Shown here: positions 6,253 to 58,270 of the stretch, one piece after another
Layout: every line of letters begins with the position of its first letter
Position numbering within the stretch: position 1 is the stretch's first letter
From: an uncultured Verrucomicrobiota bacterium
GTDB lineage: Bacteria; Verrucomicrobiota; Kiritimatiellia; RFP12; UBA1067
Assembly: GCA_946613265.1 (NCBI GenBank)
Contig: CAMOFK010000001.1
Location: forward strand, 22,753-86,752
Direction of reading: 5' to 3'
Length of the DNA stretch: 64,000 nucleotides
The notes under the pieces: generated by a model
What the model was told of the DNA's origin: nothing
What the model saw: the letters and a program-made list of their open reading frames with translations, nothing else
The model's database searches: none
Program-made: the position numbers and the translations under genes

Positions 6253-6878
6253 CGCGCCTCCTCCGCGGCAGGCGCGCCTTGGCGGGCCTGCGCGCCGATG
6301 AAGCCCACGATGCTCGTGGCGGCGGCTTCAAGTTCGACGACTATTCTTTCCATGCGTATTCTCAGCGAGCCGTGCATGACCGCCAGCGGAATCGCCACCG
6401 CCAGGCCGAGCGCGGCGGGAATGAGCGCTTCCATCGCCGCATTCATCAGGGCGGTCTTTGTGGCGAGCGCCCCGGAGTTCGCGAGCATTACTGCTTTGAT
6501 CATGCCGATGAAGGCGCCGAGCAGCCCGAGGAGCGGGGCGATCTGCCCCATGATCGCGAGCGACGCAAGGCGGCGGTCGAGACGCCCGATCTCCGCGCGG
6601 CCCTGCGCATCGACGGCGTCGCGAAGGGCGCGTTCGCCGCCTTCGCGATGGCGGATGGCCGTGGCGACGACGTTGGCTACCGGCACGGCGGTGTCTTCGC
6701 AGATCGCGAGCGCTTCGTCGATATTGCCGCGCGAGAGGATGTTGACCACGCCCTTGACGAAATCCTGCCAATCGATCTGCGCCCTGCGAAGTTCGAGAAA
6801 GCGCTCGAAGAACACGACAGCCGCCGCGACCGCGAGAGCGAGAAGGATCCAGAATACGGGTCCGCCGGTTAGCGTCAT
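6249..6878 (-). CDS. exbB: MotA/TolQ/ExbB proton-channel protein
   Basis: 209 aa. Three TMs and the conserved LASLAIMGQIAPLLGLLGAFIGMI segment of ExbB/TolQ. Confidence 0.9.
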   Translation of the reverse strand: MTLTGGPVFWILLALAVAAAVVFFERFLELRRAQIDWQDFVKGVVNILSRGNIDEALAICEDTAVPVANVVATAIRHREGGERALRDAVDAQGRAEIGRLDRRLASLAIMGQIAPLLGLLGAFIGMIKAVMLANSGALATKTALMNAAMEALIPAALGLAVAIPLAVMHGSLRIRMERIVVELEAAATSIVGFIGAQARQGAPAAEEAR

Positions 6879-10089: not shown

Positions 10090-11769
10090 CTAGGGAACCG
10101 GGAAGCCCAGCGCGAGGGCTTTCGCTTCGCGCTTCACGCGCTCCTGGATGGAAGTGTCGGCGATGTTGTCGAGCACATCGGCGATCCACGTACCGATCTT
10201 GATCATCTCCGGCTCTTTCATTCCGCGCGTCGTGACGGATGCGGTGCCCACGCGGATGCCGCTCGTCTTGAAAGGCGATTCGGTGTCGTAGGGGATGGTG
10301 TTCTTGTTCACGACGATGCCGGCGGCGTCGAGCGCGGCCGCCGCATCCTTGCCGGTTATCCCTTTCGTCGTCTTCACATCGACGAGGAAGAGGTGGTTGT
10401 CCGTGCCTCCGGAGACGATGCGATAGCCGCGATCCTGCACCGTCTTGCAGAGGACCGCGCAGTTCTTCACTACTTGCGCGGCGTAGTCCTTCTTCTCCGG
10501 CTGCATCCATTCGCGGAAGCATACCGCCTTTGCGGCGATGATGTTTTCGAGCGGCCCGCCTTGCATGCCGGGGAAGACGGCGGAATCCAGCGCCTTCGCG
10601 TACTGCGCCTTGCAGAGGACCATGCCGCCGCGCGGCCCGCCGAGAGTTTTGTGCGTCGTGGTGGTGACGAAATCAGCGTAGGGGACGGGCGAAGGATGCG
10701 CGCCGCCCGCGACAAGCCCTGCGATGTGCGCCATGTCGACGACCATCAGGCAGCCGGCCTTGTCGCAGATTTCCCGTATTCTCTTGAAGTCGAGCGTGCG
10801 CGGATATGCGGAGGCTCCCGTCAGGAGAATCTTCGGCTTTACTTCGAGCGCCTGCGCTTCGAGGGCGTCGTAGTCGAGCATCTCCGTCTTGCGATCCACG
10901 GTGTACGGGACGATGTTGTAGATCTTGCCGGAGAAATTGACCGGGCTGCCGTGCGAAAGGTGCCCGCCCTGATCGAGCGAAAGCGAGAGGATCGTATCGC
11001 CCGGCTTGATCGTCGCGAAATACACCGCCATGTTCGCGGCGGAGCCGCAATGCGGCTGGACATTCGCGTGCTCGGCGCCGAAAAGACGGCAGGCGCGCGT
11101 GCGCGCGAGCTCCTCGGCCGCGTCCACCGGGAGGCACCCGGAGTACCACCGCTTGCCCGGATAGCCCTCGGCGTACTTGTTCATCAGCACGCTTCCGGCA
11201 GCCTCGCGGCACGCGCGGCTCGAAAAATTCTCCGACGCGATTAGGTTGATTTCCGTATCCTCCTGCTCGGTCTGCGCGACGATCGCAGCGAAAATCTCCG
11301 GGTCGGCCTTGGCGAGCCCCGATGCGTCGCTCAAGCGGCCTGCGCGCTCGTTGAGCCAGCGCCTCCTGACATGGCGCTCGCTGGCGTCCGCAGGCGTCGC
11401 GATGAATGCGGATGCGATTTCCGCCGCGTAGTCCGCGGAGACGGAATTGGCGCCGAGGCAGAGGATGTTGGCATCGTTGTGCTGGCGCGCCATGACGGCG
11501 GCGTCAACGGTGGCGCAAAGCGCCGCGCGGACATTCTGGAAGCGGTTGGCCGACATCGACATGCCCACGCCGGACGTGCAAACGAGTATCCCGAAATCGA
11601 CTTCGCCTTTCGCGACCGCAAGCGCGACGGCTCTGGCGTACTCTGGATAATCGCAGGATTCGCGCGTGTCCGTGCCTGCGTCGATCATCGTCGCCTTGGC
11701 TCCGAGCGAACTCAAAAGCACGCACTTCATGGCATACCCGCCGTGGTCTGCACCGATAGCAATCTTCAT
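10090..11769 (-). CDS. glyA: Fusion protein: ribose-5-phosphate isomerase B (RpiB/LacAB) N-terminal domain plus serine hydroxymethyltransferase
   Basis: 559 aa. Residues 1-~145 read [15 protein letters not shown]...[16 protein letters not shown]...NILCLGA (RpiB). Residues ~160-559 carry [21 protein letters not shown] and [14 protein letters not shown] (the PLP lysine motif of SHMT). The frame is open and uninterrupted. Confidence 0.9.
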
Positions 11770-11808: not shown

Positions 11809-11852
11809 TATTTTCCTTGATGCGCGGCGCCGGGCAGTCTCCTCGCGCCCGA

Positions 11853-11882
11853 TTGACGCCACGGCGTACGGAATGCTATAAT
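11853..11882 (+). promoter_or_regulatory. Sigma-70-type promoter (TTGACG, 18-nt spacer, TGCTATAAT) for the kinase gene
   Basis: The -35 TTGACG lies at 11853-11858 and the extended -10 TGCTATAAT at 11874-11882. It diverges from the rpiB-glyA promoter. Confidence 0.7.
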
Positions 11883-11939
11883 ATGCGCAGACTTGATCCT
11901 GCAAACCCTTGTGTATTCCGCAAAAGGCTTGTCGATGCG

Positions 11940-14900
11940 ATGGATTTTGAAGACAGCGAGTTTCTAACGCCCGGCGAAACGTTCGGGAGTTTTGTCGTGG
12001 AGCGGCTCCTCGGCAAAGGCGGCATGGGGAGAGTCTATCTCATGACCGAGCGCTCCACTGGCCGGAAATATGCCGTCAAAGTGATGAAGCCGCCGGACGG
12101 CCCGACGAGGCATGCATGGAGAAAGCGCTTTGCCAACGAGGCCGCATTCGCGAAGAAGGTGCATCACCGCAATCTCGTCCGCGTGCATGACATAGGCGAA
12201 GATCCCGAGACGCAGCTCTGCTATATAATAATGGATTACATGCCTGGCGGGACACTCGCGGATTTGCTCAAGCGGCAAGGCCGCCTTGGGATCGCGGACG
12301 CCACGGCCATCGCCATACAGGTTGCAGAGGGACTGGCGGCGGCGCATGACGCCGGAATAATCCATCGCGATGTAAAACCCGACAACGTAATGTTCGATGC
12401 CGGCGGCGTCGTGCATGTCGTGGATCTCGGCGTGGCCAAGCCGACGGCGTCGGCAGGCGCCGAAACGATAACGCAGACTGGGATGATCGTCGGCACGCCC
12501 GCCTATATGGCGCCGGAGCAGATAATCGATTCCCGCAGGGTGGATGTGCGCTCGGATATCTATTCTCTCGGAATATTGCTTTTCGAGATGCTGACCGGCA
12601 CGAGGCCGTACGCGAAGCTTTCGATGCTCGAGATGCTCGCCAAGGCGATAGACGGCGAGGCGATCTGCGATGTCCGCCAATATCGCAAAAGCGTGCCTTC
12701 CGGACTCGCGCATGCGATAGCGAAGTTCTGCGCGCCGTCATTGGACGAACGCGTGCAGACGGCGCACGAGGCGGCGCGGATGCTCAAAGCGACGCTGGAT
12801 CGTCCCCGGCGCGCGAAGCGGTTGCAGCAGGCGTTGTGCATAGGCGCGACGGCACTGATCGTCGCAGGCAGCATTGCGACGATCCTCTTTTCGCGCAGCT
12901 CTGGGGGCATTGAGGAGGGCGCGCTCCGCGAGGCCGTGGCTGGCGGCAGGACGTGGCGCTATCGCGTCGAGAACGGCGAAGCGGTGCTTAGCTGCGCGGA
13001 GAGCGTCGGCGGCACGCTGGCTTGCGTATCCGGTGCGCCTGCGGGAGAGCTAGAGATTCCCGCGAGCCTTGACGGCTTGCGCGTGGCGGCGATAGGCGAA
13101 CGCGCGTTTTCCGGCTCGTCCGGAGGGGGCGTGTTTTCGCGGGTGTCGATTCCCGAGGGCTTGCGGGAGATTCACGGCTGCGCATTCATAGATTGCTCCG
13201 CGCTGGAAGAAGTGAAACTGCCCTCGAGCGTGCGGAAGGTCGGCGCGCGCGCATTCGCTGCATGCCTATCGCTGCGGCGCTTCAATGCCGCGATGTGCGA
13301 AAGCATCGACGGCTCCGCTTTCATAGATTGCCCGCAGCTTGCCGAAATCCAAGTCGATGACGCCAACAGTGCGTTTGCGGCGCGCGATGGCGCGCTCTAT
13401 ACTAAAGATTGCAGCAAGCTTGTCGCATTCCCGAAGACGCGCGAGGCGGGCGGCTTGCGCTTCGCGCGATCGCTCGAGCGAATCGGCGCTTCGGCATTCG
13501 CGTCATGTTGCTTCGAGGCGTTGCGGCTGCCTGCAGGCGTGGCGGCGATCGAGAAAGGTGCGTTCCGCAACTGCCGGCGTCTTGCATTGCTTGAACTTCC
13601 CGACGGAGTGAGAGAGTTGCAAGATGATATTTTCGATGGCTGCGAAAGCCTCGTCAAGCTCGTCTTCGACGGCGATGCACCCGCGGATGCCGCCCCTGGC
13701 GTCTTCAACGGCGCCCCCGAGACGCTGGTTATCGAGGTCGGGGAAAATGCAAAGGGCTGGGGCGGCGGGCAGGCGTTTTCGCAATTCTGGCCGGCGGATG
13801 GATATAGCGACGGTCAAAGCGGGGCGCACGCGCCGGCGGGGCGCAGAGTGCGCCGCACCGGCGAAAAGAAAGACTCCGGAGATGTGCGCGCGGCGCGCGG
13901 CGGCGCGATCCCCGCGCCTGTGCGCCTCGAGGCTGAAGGCCGCGTCTGGATGTGCCGTGAAGCGCGCGCTGGGGAGCGCGACAGGCTGGTGCTGATGGAT
14001 GTCGAGCCTGCGCCGGCCGATGGATTTGCCATTCCCGCTGCGATAGGCGGAAGGCGGATCGAGGTCGTGGAGGGCGCGCTTTTCGCGCGTTGCGCAAGAG
14101 TGACGCGATTGTCGCTTGGCGAAGGAATAGCGGCGATCCATGGCGCGGCGGCGTTCGGGGCCTGCAAGGAACTTGAGACGGTCGAGCTGCCGGCCAGCAT
14201 GAGAAAGTTGGGCGAGCGCGCTTTCGCGGGATGCGAAAAGCTCAAAGAGATTCGCGTAGCCGGCGGAAGCGGGGCTTTCAAATCTTTCGGAGGATTGTTG
14301 TACAGCGGCGATGGCACGCGCCTCGTGGCATGCCCTGCCTCGCGCGACGAAATCACTCTCGAAAAAGGAGTCGCGAAAATCGAGCCTGGCGCGTTTGCCG
14401 GTTGCCGCTGCCGGAGCATTTCTTTCGGTGAAGGCGTCTGCGACGTAGGCGCGGGGGCGTTCGAGGACTGCCGCTTGCTTCGCCGGCTAGAGTTTCCCGC
14501 GGTGCTGCGAAGTCTGGGCGAGCGGGCTTTCAAGGGTTGCACGGCGCTGGAAACAATTCGCTTCAACGGCGATGCGCCCGAATGCGGCCCCGAGGTTCTG
14601 GCGGGATGCGCGAGCACGGTAATCGTCGAAGTTATGCCTGGTTCGAAAGGCTGGATGGGCGCGGCGATCCACCGCGGAGACGCAGCGCGAATCGCGCTTC
14701 CCGATTACTGGCCGGAGAATGCAGGAGAACATTCGCGCGAAATCCGCTTGGTTGGCGAGAGCGCGGAAAACGCAGCGCTTCGCCGCGGCACGGCGTTTCT
14801 CAGAAGCGGCATGCAGCGCGGCGTCCGCGAGGCATACGACGGCATGTCCGCGTGGTTTTACAAGCCGCAGGAAGCGAAAGCCTCCGGGCCGGCGTGTTCG

Positions 14901-16466
14901 CTGGAGTCGCCGGATGGCGCGCATCCATGCGTGTGGCCGCGCAGCGTGGGCCGCATTGCGCTTCCCGTGGAGCTGGAAGGGCGGAAGGTGCGCGCAATCG
15001 GCGCGCGCGCGTTTGCGGACTGTCGCTCGCTCACGAATGTAGCGTTTCCCGAAGGGCTGGAGGAGATTCGCGCGCCTGGCGCGTTTCGCGATTGCACAAG
15101 TCTCGCGGAAATCGCCTTTCCCATATCACTGAAGAAGGTCGAGGGGGATGCCTTCATGGGTTGCAGGACGCTTGCGAAAGTCGATATCGCGCTTTGCGCT
15201 TCGCTCTCCGGAGCGGCCTTTCGCGGATGCGGCGCGCTCGCTGCGTTCGCCGTGGCGCCGCAGAATGCTGCGTATGAAATTCGCGAAGGCGCGCTTTGCG
15301 CCGCCGGCGGCAAGACGGTCATCGCGTTCCCGCGCACGGAGCGCGCAGCGCGAATCCCCGCCGACGCCGCCGTCATCGGCGAGTATGCGGCGTCGCACGC
15401 ATCGTTTTCCGGAAGGCTCGCGGTGCCTGCCGGCGTGGCGGACATCCAACGCGGCGCTTTCGAGGCCTGCACTGCGCTTGGCGGCGTGGAGTTCTTCGCG
15501 AAGACTCTGAAGCTCGGCGCGGCGGTCTTCGCCGGCTGCGAGAATCTCCAATACGCAGTCTTCCACGGCGATGCGCCGGTCGCCGCCGCCGATGTTTTCG
15601 CCGGCACGCCGCCTGGACTCGTCGTTTACGTTCCGCGCGATTCGAGAGGCTGGACGAAGCCAGGCTCCAGACGTCTCCCGGCGCGTTGGCCTGCGGGCGC
15701 AGGCGAAAATGCACGAGAAATCCGCTTCGCAGGCGAGAGCGCCGATGAAGCGCGTGCGCGCAGACTGGCCGACGATGCCGCGCGCAGCGATGAAGCGCGC
15801 ATCAGGACGTTCGCGACCGGCAGGCGGACTTGGTTCTATTCGCTCGACGAGGGCAACGCCGTCCTCGGCGCAGGCGGAACGCAGCCGTGCGTCTCGCCTG
15901 CTCCCAGCGGGCGGCTTGCAATACCTTCGGAAATCGACGGGCATACCGTCGTGGCGCTGGGCGATGGGGCTTTCGCAGGGTGCGGAAATCTCTCGGTGGT
16001 CGGCCTGCCCGCGACGCTGGAGAGAATCGGCGCGCGCGCATTTTCCGGCTGCCATTCGCTTCGCGCCGTCGAACTGCCGCCTGCATGCAAAAGCATCGGC
16101 GAGCGCGCGTTCGCCGAATGCGGCAAATTGAAGAAGGTGCGGCTGTCGATGTGCGAAGAGCTTGCGGGCGAGGCGGTCTTCGCCTATTGCCCGGCGCTTC
16201 GCGAGTTCAGCGTCGCGCGCGGCAATCCATCGTTCACAATTCTCGACGGCTCGCTGTATTCGCGCGACGCGAAATGCCTTATAGCCGCGGCCGTGCCGAA
16301 AGACGGCCGCTTCCGCGTGCGGCCGGGCGTGACGGAAATTGCGCCGTATGCGTTTTGCGGTTCCGGCGTCGTCGATGTCAAGCTTGCAAAGAGCGTCGAG
16401 AAGATAGGCGAGAATGCTTTCAAAGATGCCCGGAGCCTGCGCAGGATTCCGCAAATCGGCGAGTGA
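11940..16466 (+). CDS. Transmembrane Ser/Thr protein kinase with four extracytoplasmic BspA-type leucine-rich-repeat modules
   Basis: Hanks kinase motifs: GKGGMGRVY, AVKV, HRDVKPDN, DLGVA, GTPAYMAPE. A TM segment (ALCIGATALIVAGSIATILFS) follows. Then come four modules of about 300-330 aa starting near 12945, 13928, 14832 and 15816. Each contains repeated IP..V..IG..AF..C..L units and ends in a G..GW...WP tail. The start is chosen at 11940 (MDFEDSEF), downstream of the promoter; the ORF track begins at 11817. Confidence 0.85.
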   Translation: MDFEDSEFLTPGETFGSFVVERLLGKGGMGRVYLMTERSTGRKYAVKVMKPPDGPTRHAWRKRFANEAAFAKKVHHRNLVRVHDIGEDPETQLCYIIMDYMPGGTLADLLKRQGRLGIADATAIAIQVAEGLAAAHDAGIIHRDVKPDNVMFDAGGVVHVVDLGVAKPTASAGAETITQTGMIVGTPAYMAPEQIIDSRRVDVRSDIYSLGILLFEMLTGTRPYAKLSMLEMLAKAIDGEAICDVRQYRKSVPSGLAHAIAKFCAPSLDERVQTAHEAARMLKATLDRPRRAKRLQQALCIGATALIVAGSIATILFSRSSGGIEEGALREAVAGGRTWRYRVENGEAVLSCAESVGGTLACVSGAPAGELEIPASLDGLRVAAIGERAFSGSSGGGVFSRVSIPEGLREIHGCAFIDCSALEEVKLPSSVRKVGARAFAACLSLRRFNAAMCESIDGSAFIDCPQLAEIQVDDANSAFAARDGALYTKDCSKLVAFPKTREAGGLRFARSLERIGASAFASCCFEALRLPAGVAAIEKGAFRNCRRLALLELPDGVRELQDDIFDGCESLVKLVFDGDAPADAAPGVFNGAPETLVIEVGENAKGWGGGQAFSQFWPADGYSDGQSGAHAPAGRRVRRTGEKKDSGDVRAARGGAIPAPVRLEAEGRVWMCREARAGERDRLVLMDVEPAPADGFAIPAAIGGRRIEVVEGALFARCARVTRLSLGEGIAAIHGAAAFGACKELETVELPASMRKLGERAFAGCEKLKEIRVAGGSGAFKSFGGLLYSGDGTRLVACPASRDEITLEKGVAKIEPGAFAGCRCRSISFGEGVCDVGAGAFEDCRLLRRLEFPAVLRSLGERAFKGCTALETIRFNGDAPECGPEVLAGCASTVIVEVMPGSKGWMGAAIHRGDAARIALPDYWPENAGEHSREIRLVGESAENAALRRGTAFLRSGMQRGVREAYDGMSAWFYKPQEAKASGPACSLESPDGAHPCVWPRSVGRIALPVELEGRKVRAIGARAFADCRSLTNVAFPEGLEEIRAPGAFRDCTSLAEIAFPISLKKVEGDAFMGCRTLAKVDIALCASLSGAAFRGCGALAAFAVAPQNAAYEIREGALCAAGGKTVIAFPRTERAARIPADAAVIGEYAASHASFSGRLAVPAGVADIQRGAFEACTALGGVEFFAKTLKLGAAVFAGCENLQYAVFHGDAPVAAADVFAGTPPGLVVYVPRDSRGWTKPGSRRLPARWPAGAGENAREIRFAGESADEARARRLADDAARSDEARIRTFATGRRTWFYSLDEGNAVLGAGGTQPCVSPAPSGRLAIPSEIDGHTVVALGDGAFAGCGNLSVVGLPATLERIGARAFSGCHSLRAVELPPACKSIGERAFAECGKLKKVRLSMCEELAGEAVFAYCPALREFSVARGNPSFTILDGSLYSRDAKCLIAAAVPKDGRFRVRPGVTEIAPYAFCGSGVVDVKLAKSVEKIGENAFKDARSLRRIPQIGE

Positions 16467-25079: not shown

Positions 25080-25862
25080 ATGAAAGCTCTGGAAGAAATT
25101 CTTGATGAAGTACGCGGGAAAATCGCGGCTGCGGCGCATCGCGCCGGACGCGATCCTTCCGAAATCGAAATCATCGCCGTGACGAAGACGCATGGCGAGG
25201 ATGTCGTGCGCGAAGCTCGCGATGCCGGCCTTTCGATCGTCGGCGAAAACAAAGTCCAGGAAGCGATGTGGAAGAAGGCGCAGTCTCCCGGCGGCATCGA
25301 ATGGCATCTGATAGGCCATTTGCAGAGCAACAAAGTGCGGCATGCCCTCGAGACTTTCGACTTCATCCATTCGGTCGATTCCATCAAGCTCGCCGATCGC
25401 ATTCAGTCCGTCGCCGAGGCGATGGGTGCGCGCGTCCGCATTCTCCTCGAAGTCAATGTCTCCGGCGAAAAATCGAAGAGCGGGATGGCGCCCGGCGCGG
25501 TTGGCGCCGCGATCCGCCATATCACGGAGCGATGCCCGCGCATTACTCTCGAAGGCTTTATGACGATGGCGCCTTTTTCGGAGAATCCCGAAGATGCGCG
25601 CCCGTATTTCCGCGCCCTTCGCGAATTGCGCGATGCGATGGAGCGCGAATTCGGCGCGCACTTCCCGCGCCTTTCCATGGGCATGAGCGGCGACTACGAA
25701 ACAGCGGTCGAAGAGGGCGCAACGTGGGTACGTTTGGGCACCGTCCTTTTCGGCGAGAGGCCGCGCATCAAAACCGTGCGCGCCCAAGCCGATGACGATC
25801 CAATCGGCGGCGGGCTGGATTCATATTCCGGCGCCGGCCCGACAGTGCGCATCCTCGATTGA
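25080..25862 (+). CDS. yggS: YggS-family pyridoxal-phosphate homeostasis protein
   Basis: IIAVTKTH (PLP lysine), FGENKVQE-like VGENKVQE, WHLIGHLQSNK, LSMGMSGDY. It has a C-terminal extension of about 30 aa. A TTG at 25071 is an alternative start. Confidence 0.9.
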   Translation: MKALEEILDEVRGKIAAAAHRAGRDPSEIEIIAVTKTHGEDVVREARDAGLSIVGENKVQEAMWKKAQSPGGIEWHLIGHLQSNKVRHALETFDFIHSVDSIKLADRIQSVAEAMGARVRILLEVNVSGEKSKSGMAPGAVGAAIRHITERCPRITLEGFMTMAPFSENPEDARPYFRALRELRDAMEREFGAHFPRLSMGMSGDYETAVEEGATWVRLGTVLFGERPRIKTVRAQADDDPIGGGLDSYSGAGPTVRILD

Positions 25863-25939
25863 CCCTAAACCGAAGGCTCTCCCGATGTCTTGCGGGCGCG
25901 GGGAGGAGCGGTAAAACCTCGAAGGTGTCGCCTTTTCAA

Positions 25940-26085
25940 GTGATACCTATCGCCCTTGCAAGTGATACCTATCGCCCCTGCAAGTGATACCTATCGCCTC
26001 ATCAAGCGATACCTATCGCCTCATCAAGCGATAGGTATCGCTTCGTCGAGCGATAGGTATCGGTCAGGGAGGGGATAGGTATCGG
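25940..26085. repeat. Array A: seven 22-bp-phased units, each a 14-bp palindrome G(T/C)GATA-CC/GG-TATCG(C/G) plus an 8-bp spacer
   Basis: The GATACCTATCG cores start at 25942, 25964, 25986 and 26008. The GATAGGTATCG cores start at 26030, 26052 and 26074. The period is exactly 22 bp. The array is intergenic. Confidence 0.95.
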
Positions 26086-26283
26086 TTTAATGGGCGACGC
26101 CTGTCACGACGCCGCCGGTACCTGCCGTTTTAATGATTCTTTCTGGCTGTTATGTCTAAAAATCAGCGGGAAGGAGCTGCACTTTTCCCCCTTTAGACGC
26201 GCAAGGCGAGCGGCCGTGCCGAGACAAGTCAAAAAACGGGCAAACTCTAGTATTTTCCCCCATGGAAGGGGGAACGCTGGTTA

Positions 26284-26292
26284 TGGTATAAT
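26284..26292 (+). promoter_or_regulatory. Extended -10 promoter (TGGTATAAT) upstream of the LMW-PTP gene
   Basis: gttATGGTATAATAcgc. It is followed by an AT-rich leader of about 115 nt before the ATG at 26415. Confidence 0.65.
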
Positions 26293-26414
26293 ACGCATTG
26301 ATGCCAAAGTATGCGTTTCATAAGGAGAAATAAAGGAAGTGTCTTCCGAAATGTTGCGACACTACATATCGTGCGAAACCCAAATAATACACATTTTGAA
26401 ATACTCCACAAAAA

Positions 26415-26870
26415 ATGAAAATACTTTTTGTTTGCCACGGGAACATATGCCGCTCGCCGATGGCCGAGTTTGTCTGCCGGCATATTCTCGCCCGCGAAGG
26501 CGTGGATGATGTGCAGGTGGAATCGGCCGCCTTGCACAATGATGAAATCGGCAATGACACCGACTCGCGGACATTGCGCATATTGCGTCGCGAGGGCATT
26601 CCTTTCTCGCCGCGCAGAGCATGGCGTCTCACAAGGGCAAAGGCTCTTGATTACGATTTGATTGTCGGCATGGACGGCGAGAATATGCGCGACCTGCGAA
26701 ATATTTTGAGCGAGGCCGATCCGCCGCGCGTCTGCACGATGCTGTCGTTTCTCGGTCGTCCCGGGGAGTCTGTCGCCGATCCTTGGTACACCGGCGATTT
26801 CGAACTGACGTACAGGCAGATCGCCGCTGCATGCGAGGCGCTCGTCCGCCAACTCTGCGCCAAGCCATAA
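26415..26870 (+). CDS. Low-molecular-weight protein-tyrosine (or arginine) phosphatase
   Basis: 151 aa. The P-loop VCHGNICRSPMAE (CX5R-S) is at the N-terminus and the DP motif (ADPWY) is near the C-terminus. Confidence 0.9.
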   Translation: MKILFVCHGNICRSPMAEFVCRHILAREGVDDVQVESAALHNDEIGNDTDSRTLRILRREGIPFSPRRAWRLTRAKALDYDLIVGMDGENMRDLRNILSEADPPRVCTMLSFLGRPGESVADPWYTGDFELTYRQIAAACEALVRQLCAKP

Positions 26871-49274: not shown

Positions 49275-49982
49275 TCACTCCGTCGTCTCCGCCTTCGCTG
49301 TCTTTTCTGCGGCTTTCGCCGCAGCCTTTTCGGCTGCCTTCGCAGCCTTGGCGGCTTTTTCTTCTTTGATGCGGATGAAGTATTCGGAGCAGGTTTCCTT
49401 CGTGGGTCCTTCGCGCTCGAATTTGTTGTCGCCCTTCAACGAGAGATGGCGCGGGCAGAATTCGTTCGTCGTCAAATCGGCAAGCTCAAGTTTTTTTTCG
49501 TTGTCTCTGGCCGCTTCCGACCACTCTTCAAGCACGCAACCGGGGCACTTCGCCATCCCGCAAGAGTGCTTGAGGCAGTATTTGCCTTTGTACAAGCGGT
49601 CGCGGTCGCACGCCATGATGCATAGGATCTCGTCTGGATTCTTCCCGACGAGCAGATTCCGCGTGGTATCGTTTTTGATGCGCGGCATCACTCTGCCGCA
49701 GGCGTGCTTGGGGCAGTGCTTCCACACTATCTTCGTCGGAACTTCCGGCGCCGTCGCGCCGCCCTGCATCCACGGCGCGGATTTGTTCGCCTTGCCGGCG
49801 GCCCACCCGGGAATCCCGCCGATCTTCACGCCATTGTAGCAGCCTTCGGTGTGGCAGGTGTGCCGTTCGCAAAACTGGGATTTCTCCATCGCCGGCTCTT
49901 TGCATGTCGGCATTTTGCAGTTCGCGGCATGCACAAACCCGGCGCATGCGACAGCCAGCGTGACGATTGATAGCTTTTTCAT
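49275..49982 (-). CDS. Secreted cysteine-rich protein with four [FYH]-C-x-[RK]-H-x-C repeats and a Lys/Ala/Glu tail
   Basis: Start MKKLSIVTLAVACAGFVHA (signal peptide), preceded by AAAGGAGGAAAA. Motifs are FCERHTC, HCPKHAC, YCLKHSC and FCPRH. The C-terminus reads KEEKAAKAAKAAEKAAAKAAEKTAKAETTE. Confidence 0.62.
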   Translation of the reverse strand: MKKLSIVTLAVACAGFVHAANCKMPTCKEPAMEKSQFCERHTCHTEGCYNGVKIGGIPGWAAGKANKSAPWMQGGATAPEVPTKIVWKHCPKHACGRVMPRIKNDTTRNLLVGKNPDEILCIMACDRDRLYKGKYCLKHSCGMAKCPGCVLEEWSEAARDNEKKLELADLTTNEFCPRHLSLKGDNKFEREGPTKETCSEYFIRIKEEKAAKAAKAAEKAAAKAAEKTAKAETTE

Positions 49983-50049
49983 TTTATTTTCCTCCTTTGT
50001 CAAGCTCGACGCCGCGGAATGGCTCCGCGTATGCAAAACGACGCGGCTC

Positions 50050-50829
50050 TTACCGCGTCGGATTCTTCGCCATGAACTCCCACGCAAAAGCTTTGTAGGC
50101 TTCCGCGCCTTTGGAGCGGGGGTCGAAAAATACGACCGGCGTGCCCATAGATGGCGCTTCGGAGACGCGGACGTTGCGGGGGATCGTCGTCTCGTAAACC
50201 TTCTCGCCGAAATGCTCGCGCACTTCGTTCATCACGTCCTGCGTGAGGCGCGCGGACATGTTCACCATCGTGAAGACTATGCCGCCAAGCTCCAGCGCCG
50301 GATTCACCGTCTTGATGCGCTCTATGGAATTGGTGATGAGCGCCAGCCCGTCCATCGCCAGAAATTCCGCTTGGATCGGGATAAGCACGCTGTCGGCGGC
50401 CGCGAGCGCCGAGGCCATGACGACGCCGAGCGATGGCGGGCAGTCTATGATGATATAGTCGAAAACGCCGGCGTCTTTGACTGGCTTCACGGCGTTGCGG
50501 ATCATTTCCAGGCGGTCTTCGCGCATGCTGAACTCAAGCTCCGCGCCGGCGAGATTCACTTCCGATGGAATGACATTGAGATTGTTCCACTTCGTAGGCT
50601 GGATCGTCTCGTCGATCGCGCGCTCGCCAGCCAGCACTCCGTACAGCGAATAGCCTGGCGTCTTCTCCAGACCGAGCGCCAGCGTCGCGTGCGCTTGCGG
50701 ATCGAGATCGACTACCAGCACCGTGCGGTGGCGCTGCGAAAGCGCCGCGGCGAGATTGACGGCGGTTGTCGTCTTGCCGACGCCGCCTTTTTGGTTGGCG
50801 ATCGCGATTGTCTTCGTCTTGATTTCCAT
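50050..50829 (-). CDS. ParA/Soj/MinD-family P-loop ATPase (orphan; no ParB adjacent)
   Basis: 259 aa. Deviant Walker A NQKGGVGKTTT, then DLDPQ and IIDCPPSLG. The start is taken at MEIKTKTIAIA (50829). Confidence 0.9.
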   Translation of the reverse strand: MEIKTKTIAIANQKGGVGKTTTAVNLAAALSQRHRTVLVVDLDPQAHATLALGLEKTPGYSLYGVLAGERAIDETIQPTKWNNLNVIPSEVNLAGAELEFSMREDRLEMIRNAVKPVKDAGVFDYIIIDCPPSLGVVMASALAAADSVLIPIQAEFLAMDGLALITNSIERIKTVNPALELGGIVFTMVNMSARLTQDVMNEVREHFGEKVYETTIPRNVRVSEAPSMGTPVVFFDPRSKGAEAYKAFAWEFMAKNPTR

Positions 50830-50833
50830 AGCT

Positions 50834-51355
50834 TCACCCGAGGAGATTTTTGCTTGCAAGTTCGCGGATGTTATGCTCGGCGGAACGCTCGACTTCGCGC
50901 CGCCAAAGCTCCACAAGCGCTATTTCCCACGGCTCGTCCACGCCGGTGAGGACGGCAGAGAAGCGGTCTCCGCTGGCGAGGACGCCGGCTTTTACGCGCC
51001 CGGCGATTTCGTCGATCGAGCCTGTAACGATCTGTTCGGAAAAGTTGTCGGATTTCAACCTGTAGCCGTAGCGCAGGATTCTCATGTTGTCGCGCAGGAA
51101 TTCCAGGTATTCGCGGGCGTCTTCTCCAAGCCCCTCCACCGTGATTTCATTGAAGTCCGGCACGATCACACGCGGCTGGTGAGCCTCCAGGCGGCCTTCG
51201 CGGATGCGTATTTTGCTGGGCGCGTCGGGCAGCTCCGAGACGAGATGGTAGTTGAGCAGCGTAGAACCGAACGTCTCGAGTTCCTGCGAAGGATAGACGA
51301 GGATCTTGACATTGCGCGCGGCATGCCAGCGATCGAAATTCGGGTCTGAACTCAT
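50834..51355 (-). CDS. Hypothetical cytoplasmic protein immediately upstream of parA-like gene
   Basis: 173 aa, acidic, with no TM or signal peptide. Its stop lies 4 nt before the ParA-like start. No family recognised. Confidence 0.55.
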   Translation of the reverse strand: MSSDPNFDRWHAARNVKILVYPSQELETFGSTLLNYHLVSELPDAPSKIRIREGRLEAHQPRVIVPDFNEITVEGLGEDAREYLEFLRDNMRILRYGYRLKSDNFSEQIVTGSIDEIAGRVKAGVLASGDRFSAVLTGVDEPWEIALVELWRREVERSAEHNIRELASKNLLG

Positions 51356-57240: not shown

Positions 57241-57286
57241 TACCCCGCAGGATCGGCCACGTTCGCGACTTTTGTCGTATGCTCTG

Positions 57287-57432
57287 GCGACTGGAGTCGC
57301 CCGTGCTGGCGACCCTAGTCGCCTTTGCAAGCGACTGGAGTCGCCTTTGCAAGCGACTAGAGTCGCTTTGGCTCGCGACTGGAGTCGCCTTCGCAAGCGA
57401 CTAGAGTCGCCTTCGCTCGCGACTGGAGTCGC
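57287..57432. repeat. Array B: seven 22-bp-phased units, each a 14-bp palindrome GCGACT-GG-AGTCGC (variants) plus an 8-bp spacer
   Basis: Palindromes start at 57287, 57309, 57331, 57353, 57375, 57397 and 57419, a period of exactly 22. Spacers are ccgtgctg, ctttgcaa, ctttgcaa, tttggctc, cttcgcaa and cttcgctc. Confidence 0.95.
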
Positions 57433-57517
57433 CCCGGCGCGCAACCCACATCAGGAGGGACGCGCTCCCGCGCGTCCACCGGCCGCGCCGGAGCGCGTTC
57501 CTCCGCCGTTCGTGCGG

Positions 57518-58240
57518 TGGTGTAGCGCAAAGCCCCGAATGGGGCGACATATATATAGCCGGGGGTGGAGCATGCGAAGCATGCGGAACCCCCGGTATCG
57601 GCGCAAAAGTGAATCGAACCCCGAAGGGGTGGCACAATGGGTGTTCCGATGGCGTCGGAATAATTGTGCCACCCCTTCGGGGTTTGTGCGTTCTTCGAAC
57701 GCATTCCGGGGGTTGCGCGCGCGTTGCGCGCTCCACCCCCGGCTATATATGTGTCGCCCCTTCGGGGCTTTGCGGGCGTGCGATGGTGTAGCGCAAAGCC
57801 CCGAATGGGGCTTTTTTCGGTCGCGCGATGGTGTAGCGCAAAGCCCCGAATGGGGCTTTTCTCGGTCGCGCGGTGGTGTAGCGCAAAGCCCCGAATGGGG
57901 CGACACATAAATAGCCGGGGGTGGAGCATGCGAAGCATGCGGAACCCCCGGAACAAGCACGAAAGTAAATCGAACCCCGAAGGGGTGGCACAATGGGTCA
58001 CAGCGGGTGTTTCAACATCGTCGGAGCAATTGTGCCACCCCTTCGGGGTTCGATTCAATATTGCGCCTATTCCGGGGGTTGCGCGGGCTTCGCCCGCTCA
58101 CCCCCGGCTATAAATGTGCCGCCCCTTCGGGGCTTGTTTCAATATTGCGCCGATACCGGGGGGGGTGGAGCATACGAAGCATGCGGAACCCCCGGAACAA
58201 GCGCGAAAGTAAAACGAACCCCGAAGGGGTGGCACAATGC
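57518..58240. repeat. Five copies of a roughly 100-125-nt composite hairpin element in alternating orientation, plus a 45-bp triplication of its 5' module
   Basis: E1 57518-57640 (+), E2 57661-57780 (-), E3 57872-57997 (+), E4 58028-58135 (-), E5 58141-58238 (+, 5'-truncated). Shared modules are GTAGCGCAAAGCCCCGAATGGGGC, CCGGGGGTGGA[hairpin]GGAACCCCCGG and CGAACCCCGAAGGGGTGGCACAAT. Confidence 0.9.
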
Positions 58241-58270
58241 CGTGAAGGGCGATAGCTGCCCCGGGGCGCT

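Follow-up and report, generated by a model that had tools for sequence, protein, structure and literature searches.

The chromosome of an uncultured bacterium from the sheep rumen carries, in the spacer between the genes for a YggS-like protein and a protein tyrosine phosphatase, a row of short palindromic units repeated at an exact period of 22 bp. This element, here termed array A (25918-26107), was analysed within a window of 64 kb, which is the whole stretch of DNA studied and to which all coordinates refer. It raises the question of what keeps so regular a structure in an ordinary housekeeping region of the chromosome, the context of which is syntenic in all strains compared. Judged from its sequence, array A can tentatively, and at somewhat less than even confidence, be read as a series of phased sites, each with dyad symmetry, at which a dimeric protein would bind sequence-specifically. 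It combines conserved inverted half-sites, a constant spacing near whole helical turns and a free linker, and would on these features belong to the functional class of phased sites. With 10.5 bp per helical turn, a period of 22 bp corresponds to about two turns, so that all sites would come to lie on one face of the duplex.

Organisation and folding of array A

The units of array A and their arrangement are as follows.

25918-26107, no strand assigned: array A, entire; nine 22-bp units in register, forming an imperfect palindrome of ~190 bp centred on the linker 26020-26027
25918-25939, plus strand: unit 0, degenerate left end; cTCGAaGGTgTCGC followed by the linker cttttcaa, in the 22-bp register
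25940-26027, plus strand: units 1-4, CC orientation; G(T/C)GATA-CC-TATCGC with the linkers ccttgcaa, ccctgcaa, ctcatcaa and ctcatcaa
26006-26041, no strand assigned: centre of symmetry; two perfect 14-bp cores, inverted, around the 8-bp ctcatcaa (14-8-14; 0 mismatches)
26028-26093, plus strand: units 5-7, GG orientation; G(C/G)GATA-GG-TATCG(C/G) with the linkers ttcgtcga, tcagggag and tttaatgg
26094-26107, plus strand: unit 8, degenerate right end; GCGACGCCTGTCAC

The intact part of the array (25940-26085) consists of seven units with cores starting at 25940, 25962, 25984, 26006, 26028, 26050 and 26072, thus at a period of exactly 22 bp. Each unit is made of a 14-bp core, in which 6-bp arms (GCGATA/TATCGC) enclose a 2-bp centre, and an 8-bp linker that is conserved in length alone. 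The core consensus is G[T/C]GATACCTATCGC for units 1-4 and G[C/G]GATAGGTATCG[C/G] for units 5-7. A preliminary description of this DNA had reported the seven cores, their period and their linkers, and both direct reading of the sequence and Tandem Repeats Finder (25928-26062, period 22, 6.1 copies, 86% matches, score 149) bear this out. Two of its statements have to be refined. Seven units are intact, and one degenerate unit in register at each end brings the full count to nine, five in the left half and four in the right. The cores, described as 14-bp palindromes, do possess 6-bp inverted arms, whereas the CC or GG centre is non-palindromic and the outermost arm pairs are imperfect (T2.G13 in units 1-3, G.G in units 6-7).

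That array A is a genuine repeat array and not a product of chance is confirmed. With up to two mismatches, the core pattern has eight matches in the window against 1.9 expected; seven of the eight make up the array, and none of 100 shuffled sequences reached eight. A search for phased 6+2+6 palindromes with periods of 14-60 and runs of at least four units returned only two runs in the 64 kb, namely array A and a sister array B at 57287. No open reading frame (ORF) of at least 50 aa covers array A, save the start of one 77-aa ORF at the last degenerate unit.

The two halves of the array face each other, units 5-7 having the sequence of units 1-4 in reverse complement. Partial complementarity extends to the linkers of the two halves (ccctg on the left versus caggg on the right), and in an inverted-repeat search the degenerate terminal units pair mutually, AGGTGTCGCC of unit 0 with GGCGACGCCT of the right end. 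The resulting inverted repeat joins 25950-26019 to 26028-26097 over 70 nt with 74% complementarity. For the plus strand, the predicted fold has -116 kcal/mol compared with -72 +/- 4.5 for shuffled sequences (z = -9.8), and for the minus strand z = -10.0 was obtained. The earlier proposal that the change of the centre from CC to GG allows one long imperfect hairpin is thereby supported on paper. The long stem is interrupted every 14 bp, the linkers being only partly complementary.

This very stable hairpin potential of the whole element speaks against a row of protein sites in the duplex and would suit a foldback element related to the repetitive extragenic palindromes (REP) and bacterial interspersed mosaic elements (BIME). 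Such an element would act as single-stranded DNA or RNA, through the stem-loops of its units or as one hairpin of ~90 bp, and could serve as a two-way terminator, a protector of mRNA 3′-ends or a cruciform. It would be maintained or spread by a hairpin-recognising enzyme such as a transposase of the REP-associated tyrosine transposase (RAYT) type or by slippage at hairpins, with compensatory changes keeping the stem. We consider this reading possible, though on the unlikely side. The strong folds, also predicted for array B at z = -4.7, the inversion of units 5-7 relative to units 1-4 and the pairing of the terminal units fit it, as does the fact that the arm mismatches are mostly of the G.T type. 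One section of a study on such elements, which also refers to the Planctomycetes-Verrucomicrobia-Chlamydiae (PVC) superphylum, reports that REP families have 5-13 bp in the stem and 2-20 nt in the loop and often form tandem clusters (PMC3733652). Evidence on the other side comes from the regular interruption of the long stem and from the tag of REP units, described in the same source as an unpaired GTAG or CGTC tetranucleotide at one stem end (PMC3733652): neither GTAG nor CTAC is present in any unit of array A, and a single CGTC lies in one linker, ttcgtcga.

A regular row of palindromic repeats, whose spacers vary but are constant in length, and strong predicted folding might also indicate a structured-RNA gene or an array like CRISPR (short palindromic repeats that are clustered and regularly interspaced), which we regard as very improbable. 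At gathering thresholds, Rfam 15 finds only two tRNAs in the window, and at E <= 1 array A has only matches to miRNA-type hairpins, with about 1/4 to 1/3 of their gathering scores; for array B, too, loose thresholds bring up nothing but generic hairpins. In CRISPR arrays, the repeats measure about 23-47 nt and the unique spacers between them about 21-72 nt, and cas genes are usually present. The 14-nt repeats and 8-nt spacers of array A are far below this range, its spacers recur within the array, and no cas-type domain was found in a Pfam scan of 50 ORFs across the window (of about 52 predicted). As described below for similar arrays, the mismatches show no strand bias either.

The sister array and variation between strains

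Array B provides an internal comparison for array A.

57265-57440, plus strand: sister array B; one degenerate and seven intact 22-bp units, GCGACT-(GG/AG)-AGTCGC with an 8-bp linker

It lies between two convergent genes, that of a CBM48-domain protein and bioB. Both arrays have in common the outer GCGA...TCGC, the period and the linker consensus cYTTGCAA, and they differ at positions 5/6 and 9/10, where both pairs stay complementary (T-A and A-T in array A, C-G and T-A in array B). The compensatory relation of the two arrays postulated earlier is therefore correct. It comprises two covarying pairs only and would fit a changed specificity as well as a kept stem; a paralogous binder did not turn up among the scanned ORFs. 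Within the arrays, the arms are far less variable than the linkers: off-consensus positions amount to 6/84 in the arms and 17/48 in the linkers of array A (Fisher p = 7e-5) and to 1/84 and 12/48 in array B (p = 2e-5).

These numbers bear on a third explanation, a neutral minisatellite (variable number tandem repeat, VNTR), in which replication slippage multiplied a 22-mer that was palindromic by chance. Array B would then be an old duplicate, and neither symmetry nor phase would be more than a by-product. In line with this, neighbouring units share linkers (ctcatcaa twice, ctttgcaa twice) and array B has a higher-order period of 44 bp, with 85% matches against 80% at period 22. Slippage, however, copies linker and core alike, yet the arms vary far less, and the two arrays differ at both inner pairs with the symmetry intact. 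All in all, a neutral origin appears rather improbable.

Neither core occurs outside its own array in the window, singly or paired, with up to two mismatches, and a further 6.7 kb of the source contig contains no array or core copy, which is a point against a REP-like element. The cores fit the type II recognition patterns GATN4ATC and GACN4GTC, and a putative nature as restriction sites is a further lead.

Proteins of the window were matched exactly in the sheep-rumen assemblies SHIW14 and AUXO and in the metagenome-assembled genome (MAG) GCA_002363575.1, and the arrays could be compared between strains. To judge by gene content, the source organism may be of the PVC type. Array A was recovered in three further contigs (L073, L080, L090) with unchanged unit number and period. 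Ten substitutions separate its 190 bp from those of L090 (5.3%), without any indel; in the same comparison, 4.6-5.5% of positions are substituted in the flanking non-coding DNA, which also has four indels, and the difference at third codon positions is 2-4.6%. The outermost left units account for six of the ten changes, and none falls in the inner core of units 2-7. A T-A pair is restored by one change, G13 to A in unit 3, and two others create T.G. Constraint on point mutations in array A is thus weak at this time scale, which counts against protein sites; the divergence at about the neutral rate agrees with a minisatellite. On the other hand, array A has no indel across four strains while the adjacent spacer carries four, which a minisatellite does not explain. 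Selection on dyad symmetry, as postulated in the preliminary description, is upheld by the kept arms beside varying linkers and by the census given below; from the drift of array A at roughly the rate of flanking non-coding DNA, it is not strong at the time scale of these strains. Relatives whose YggS is 74-82% identical no longer show synteny, and their orthologous locus is without an array.

For array B, seven contigs encoding an identical CBM48 protein were recovered. The number of intact units is six in L081 and L082, seven in the window and in L083, and eight in L085, always at 22 bp. A conserved copy number of exactly seven, which had been taken as common to both arrays, is therefore not borne out. 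Free variation of period and copy number had been named as an outcome that would make the covariation a matter of chance; copy number does vary, whereas the period is constant at the locus in all strains seen. Variation of copy number suits both a REP-like element and a minisatellite.

The most informative allele is that of L081 and L082. The gene adjoining array B is identical there (0/354 mismatches) and the upstream spacer is 97.7% identical, but at most linker positions of units 3-6 the sequence differs, and for the 118 nt that follow a local alignment finds no match. Nevertheless, the 14-bp cores including the centre GG are unchanged letter for letter and still exactly 22 bp apart. No other observation argues as strongly as this divergent allele for a maintained core sequence and spacing with freedom in the remainder. 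Because the cores are identical in spite of linkers that cannot be aligned, recognition of the sequence itself is favoured over the stem alone: the allele preserves more than pairing requires, which argues against a REP-like element, and more than slippage would leave beside an unalignable flank, which argues against a minisatellite.

Directly after array B, 87-118 nt are replaced by unrelated sequence between the window (57441-57527) and L081/L082, which are near-identical on the left of this segment and rejoin a set of hairpin modules on the right. The replaced segment suggests that array B borders on a hot spot of recombination or replacement. The hairpin modules themselves belong to ~0.8 kb of non-coding DNA (57450-58260) whose sequences do not recur in the rest of the window. 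They include a block of some 356 bp, present in two to three copies, each with an imperfect palindrome of ~250 nt (for example 57534-57598 versus 57703-57767), and a 45-bp unit occurs three times at 57769-57901 with 94% matches. Rfam gives only sub-threshold matches for this region, to generic miRNA-type hairpins and to Acido-Lenti-1 at E about 0.1.

Several short-read assemblies end in or just after array A, array B or the hairpin modules (L073, L084, L086, L083, L241), among them two contigs of the MAG GCA_002363575.1. The array repeats fragment MAGs of the source species, and breaks inside arrays are a further trait that a REP-like element would explain. A nature of array A as a transposon end or as a MITE (a miniature transposable element with inverted repeats) was rejected: there is no target-site duplication, no shared TGT...ACA terminus and no strain without the element.

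Similar arrays in metagenomes and viral contigs

Independent copies of the design were sought in metagenomes with the pattern GAYW-N2-WRTCG, required three times at 22 bp. As period and GA...TCG frame are fixed, the result is biased by the pattern. At least 120 loci were obtained and grouped as 94 families; the counts that follow hold among the matches listed. The arrays usually have 3-5 units; their centres vary, and each family has linkers of its own. Complementarity of both inner pairs was seen in 55 of the 94 families, compared with 25% expected (p = 6e-12). A tally from the census table shows pair 6/9 to be complementary in 72 and pair 5/10 in 70 families, where 50% are expected, and the outer two pairs are weakly palindromic (31% Watson-Crick). 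The covariation proposed on the basis of two arrays thus recurs in independent copies, and such strong enrichment of palindromic arms over 94 independent families is not what a minisatellite would produce. By reasoning, a 2-nt centre cannot be a loop, and the pair beside it could not form in the hairpin of a single unit. This pair is nonetheless kept as well as its neighbour, which favours recognition of the duplex and is difficult to reconcile with a REP-like stem-loop. Of the 55 palindromic families, 38 share the GACT/AGTC arms of array B, 11 have GACA/TGTC, and 6 have GATA/TATC, the arms of array A; the predominance of GACT/AGTC points to a sequence preference besides the structural one.

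Many three-unit elements have outer units that are mutual reverse complements (centres AG...CT), as in the design of array A. With crude ORF calls at these loci, placement is between convergent genes in 17 cases, tandem genes in 23 and divergent genes in 8, often 10-90 bp past a stop codon; the surplus of convergent over divergent placements and the position behind stop codons suit a REP-like element. The strand that carries mismatches of the G.T type is that of the upstream gene in 10 arrays and the other one in 21. These mismatches thus give no sign of a sense-strand RNA, contrary to what a REP-like transcript or a structured RNA would lead one to expect.

Three results of the census weigh against dedicated protein sites. 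A single genome can carry the same family several times, in either orientation and flanked by conserved inverted repeats, so that the wider class looks REP- or MITE-like. An all-against-all BLAST of flanking ORFs of about 80 arrays revealed no recurrent neighbouring gene. Finally, a scan of viral contigs for GACT-N2-AGTC triplets with the spacing left free found them at 12-42 bp, with 21-23 and 31-33 bp commonest, and hence at many spacings. These two commonest intervals are close to two and three helical turns, a point in favour of phased sites. A common ancestry of the window arrays and the metagenome arrays, or a common binding protein, would be hypothetical.

Two further searches were less productive. 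A generic genome scan for GYGA-N6-TCGC, three times at 22 bp, yielded mostly unrelated non-palindromic 22-bp tandem repeats; palindromy was weakly enriched, in 6 of 41 arm families (p = 0.04), counts which again hold among the matches listed and are biased by the pattern. The many non-palindromic repeats and the weak enrichment are in line with a minisatellite. A linker-based metagenome scan, with TCGCCNNYGCAAGYGA twice 6 bp apart, gave 0 matches, the pattern being too strict even for the strain variants of array B.

In three viral contigs of IMG/VR (L211 1451-1560, L226 7358-7460, L240 4653-4770), five TGACTATAGTCA palindromes at 22-23 bp lie inside one gene, and L230 has a similar array. The gene encodes a protein of 350-363 aa with an N-terminal HTH_36 domain, and in L240 the next gene is that of a DnaB-type helicase. 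By analogy, the phage TGACTATAGTCA arrays are read as lambda-O-like origin iterons, and their layout would be a precedent for the arrangement of array A, as in an origin of the lambda type.

Other organisms contributed observations in their own right. L104 (LAHS01000242.1) has three-unit GACA-N2-TGTC arrays at 547-600, 6479-6532 and 11028-11081 within 11.8 kb; further arrays are located on other contigs of the LAHS01 organism, at a density of about one per 4-5 kb. An Anaerolineaceae MAG (L031, 17-100) carries a GCGACAGGAGTCGC array, 13/14 identical to the core of array B, that ends ~70 bp upstream of a TATAAT-type promoter-like sequence followed by an apparent tRNA gene. The same core is present in contig L044 of a Terrimicrobiaceae MAG, where the neighbouring proteins are unrelated to the Anaerolineaceae ones. 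Contigs of Terriglobia and Acidobacteriota (L005, L011, L015, L017, L027, L030, L034, L038, L045, L053, L058, L060, L065, L066) have three or four 22-bp units of GTGATTSAGTTCGC and gcNNNNac. These units adjoin DnaA-box-like TTTTCCACAG / CTGTGGAAAA and a conserved CCTGTAGTTATTTACCTGTAG and may, to judge by sequence, be a conserved part of the acidobacterial chromosomal origin.

Genomic surroundings and proposed role of the array

Array A occupies part of a 552-bp intergenic gap (25863-26414) with these neighbours.

25080-25862, plus strand: yggS, YggS-like pyridoxal phosphate (PLP)-binding protein; Pfam Ala_racemase_N, 1.2e-23; exact protein on record; stop codon 56 bp before unit 0
26136-26180, no strand assigned: AT-richer stretch ~30 bp after array A; 44% G+C against about 61% in surrounding 2-kb windows
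26284-26292, plus strand: promoter-like extended -10 sequence TGgTATAAT, upstream of the phosphatase gene; a neighbour of array A, not a part of it
26415-26870, plus strand: low-molecular-weight protein tyrosine phosphatase; Pfam LMWPc, 3.8e-31; downstream of array A

The gap and the promoter-like sequence, 199 bp after the last intact core, are as first described; a consensus promoter scan did not call TGgTATAAT, there being no -35 match. A block at roughly 26262-26334 (estimated coordinates), comprising the -10 sequence and a following hairpin ACGCATTGATGCCAAAGTATGCGT, is identical in L090, the rest of the spacer being ~5% different, and a near-identical TTTATGGTATAATA is located ahead of a prs-like gene in the relative L074. 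The gene order before array A is GrpE, DnaJ, tRNA-Leu, an ACT-domain protein, DUF711, a small protein resembling outer membrane proteins and YggS; the phosphatase is followed by a class II aldolase and GH95. Around array B, MutS, two small proteins (one DivIC-like) and the CBM48-domain protein precede the array, and the hairpin modules, BioB and a 2-oxoacid:ferredoxin oxidoreductase follow.

Candidate binding proteins are missing from these surroundings. No helix-turn-helix (HTH), ribbon-helix-helix or ParB-type domain was found in the 50 scanned ORFs, and the ORFs nearest to either array have no DNA-binding domain by Pfam. Both results tell against a dedicated dimer encoded nearby, and two arm types in one genome would moreover need two binding proteins. 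Equally, no transposase (including Y1/RAYT) or recombinase domain was detected among the scanned ORFs, so that the Y1-transposase domain expected for a REP-like element is lacking there.

The only partition-type gene in the window codes for an orphan ParA-like protein (50050-50916), 6 kb from array B and 24 kb from array A and without a ParB partner. On the minus strand at 49275-50916, this Soj/ParA-type ATPase gene is followed by one for a cysteine-rich, probably secreted protein in place of parB; the latter has a lysine/alanine-rich repeat tail and no Pfam match. Elsewhere in the window, one minus-strand ORF (10090-11769) joins a ribose-5-phosphate isomerase B domain (3-136) to a full serine hydroxymethyltransferase (152-529), a fusion that looks unusual, and a plus-strand ORF (11817-16466) encodes a 1549-aa protein with a Ser/Thr kinase domain at its N-terminus and six regions of leucine-rich repeats of the BspA type. 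The GC skew changes sign near 56-60 kb; the stretch is too short for interpretation.

A replication or partition site, either origin iterons (active or the relic of an integrated element) or a centromere-like site of the ParB or ParR type, is a fourth explanation, which seems quite improbable. Seven 22-bp units are the format of plasmid iterons, R6K gamma having seven of 22 bp, and array A with its 22-bp period and about seven units likewise has at least three repeats of 17-22 bp at ~22 bp. The AT-richer 45 bp behind array A, the ParA-like gene and the phage arrays of like palindromes in an HTH-protein gene, with the DnaB helicase next in one contig, point in the same direction. However, no initiator, helicase, ParB or ParR gene lies beside either array, array B has no AT-rich flank, and the region is syntenic housekeeping chromosome. 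In the window, the DnaA box TTWTNCACA has 0 matches and parS does not occur beyond chance, which speaks against a chromosomal origin or parS; searches of PLSDB found no plasmid similarity to either array.

In lambdoid origins (ori-lambda inside gene O), several sites with dyad symmetry, each 12-19 bp long, follow one another at about two helical turns; every site is bound by a dimer, with a specificity that co-varies with the initiator. Array A resembles them in the layout of its sites and differs in being intergenic and chromosomal, without an initiator or helicase gene or DnaA box nearby, and in having 7-9 units instead of 4-5, with inverted halves. Plasmid iterons are asymmetric direct repeats beside a rep gene, unlike array A. 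The Chlamydia plasmid, from the PVC superphylum, has four 22-bp repeats TTTGCAACTCTTGGTGGTAGAC which share TTTGCAA with the linker (sequence verified); in our own alignment the Chlamydia unit is 12/22 identical to the array unit, has only TTTGCAA as a common part and is not palindromic. The sopC site of F, with 12 x 43 bp and a 16-bp inverted repeat in each, is a set of phased sites coated by a dimeric HTH protein; array A has no adjacent parAB/sopAB operon, a period of 22 instead of 43 bp and a location at a chromosomal housekeeping locus.

REP/BIME clusters of Enterobacteria and Pseudomonas are alike in their tandem intergenic palindromic units with regular linkers. They vary in copy number between strains, and REPs usually have more than 100 dispersed copies per genome. 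The units of array A are 14 nt long instead of 20-40 and do not alternate in orientation, each core is private to its array and undispersed in about 71 kb, and no RAYT was seen in the scanned ORFs. An example of such clusters, REP325 of E. coli, comprises six repeats of two palindromic units each. REP/BIME sequences are described from 3′ untranslated regions and as bound by host proteins (PMC2817692, PMC4550694, PMC3733652). Phased sites and a REP-like nature are thus not exclusive, REPs being both hairpins and protein sites. For 22-bp arrays of 14-bp palindromes, no description was found in the literature searched, the coverage of which was incomplete. Origin iterons and REP/BIME clusters are the closest kinds, and array A is classed with neither because some defining features of each are not found in it. 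The metagenome GAYW-N2-WRTC arrays from gut, rumen and other sources agree with the window arrays in period, core length, free centre, variable linkers and intergenic location; they differ in usually having 3-5 units, often many copies per genome and conserved flanking inverted repeats.

If array A is a row of phased sites, an HTH-like sequence-specific dimer would bind to each core, and neighbouring dimers would be in contact and polymerise, coating about 190 bp of duplex. A paralogue could recognise array B, or one protein could serve both arrays if its contacts were mainly to the outer GCGA/TCGC. Left and right halves of array A may have arisen by inverted duplication, which would also account for the long-hairpin potential. 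Because array A lies 56 bp past the yggS stop codon and 200 bp before the next promoter, and because sister arrays are often found past gene 3′-ends, a structural or barrier role would be more plausible than a classical operator; the array might serve as a roadblock or an insulator that separates transcription units, or as a landing pad for a protein in the manner of REP. A bolder and, in our judgement, unlikely proposal is that the window arrays and the metagenome GAYW-N2-WRTC arrays form one undescribed insulator or roadblock system, coated by a dedicated family of dimers with switchable specificity. Such a system might stop read-through transcription or stall replication forks, with arm classes co-evolving with paralogous binders, and could be likened to the repeated terminator-factor sites behind eukaryotic rRNA genes.

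The unit number that varies between strains and the breaks of assemblies at the arrays bear on the contiguity of MAGs, and the arrays are possible strain markers. If they are only REP-like hairpins, that class would come to include far shorter units, an exact period of 22 bp and phyla new to it. If they are coated by protein, they would be a chromosomal landmark of uncultured PVC-like bacteria and, by the look of matching contigs, of Bacteroidales that annotation has missed, being neither in Rfam nor called as REP, CRISPR or iterons, and the source organism would offer a natural experiment with two specificities in one genome.

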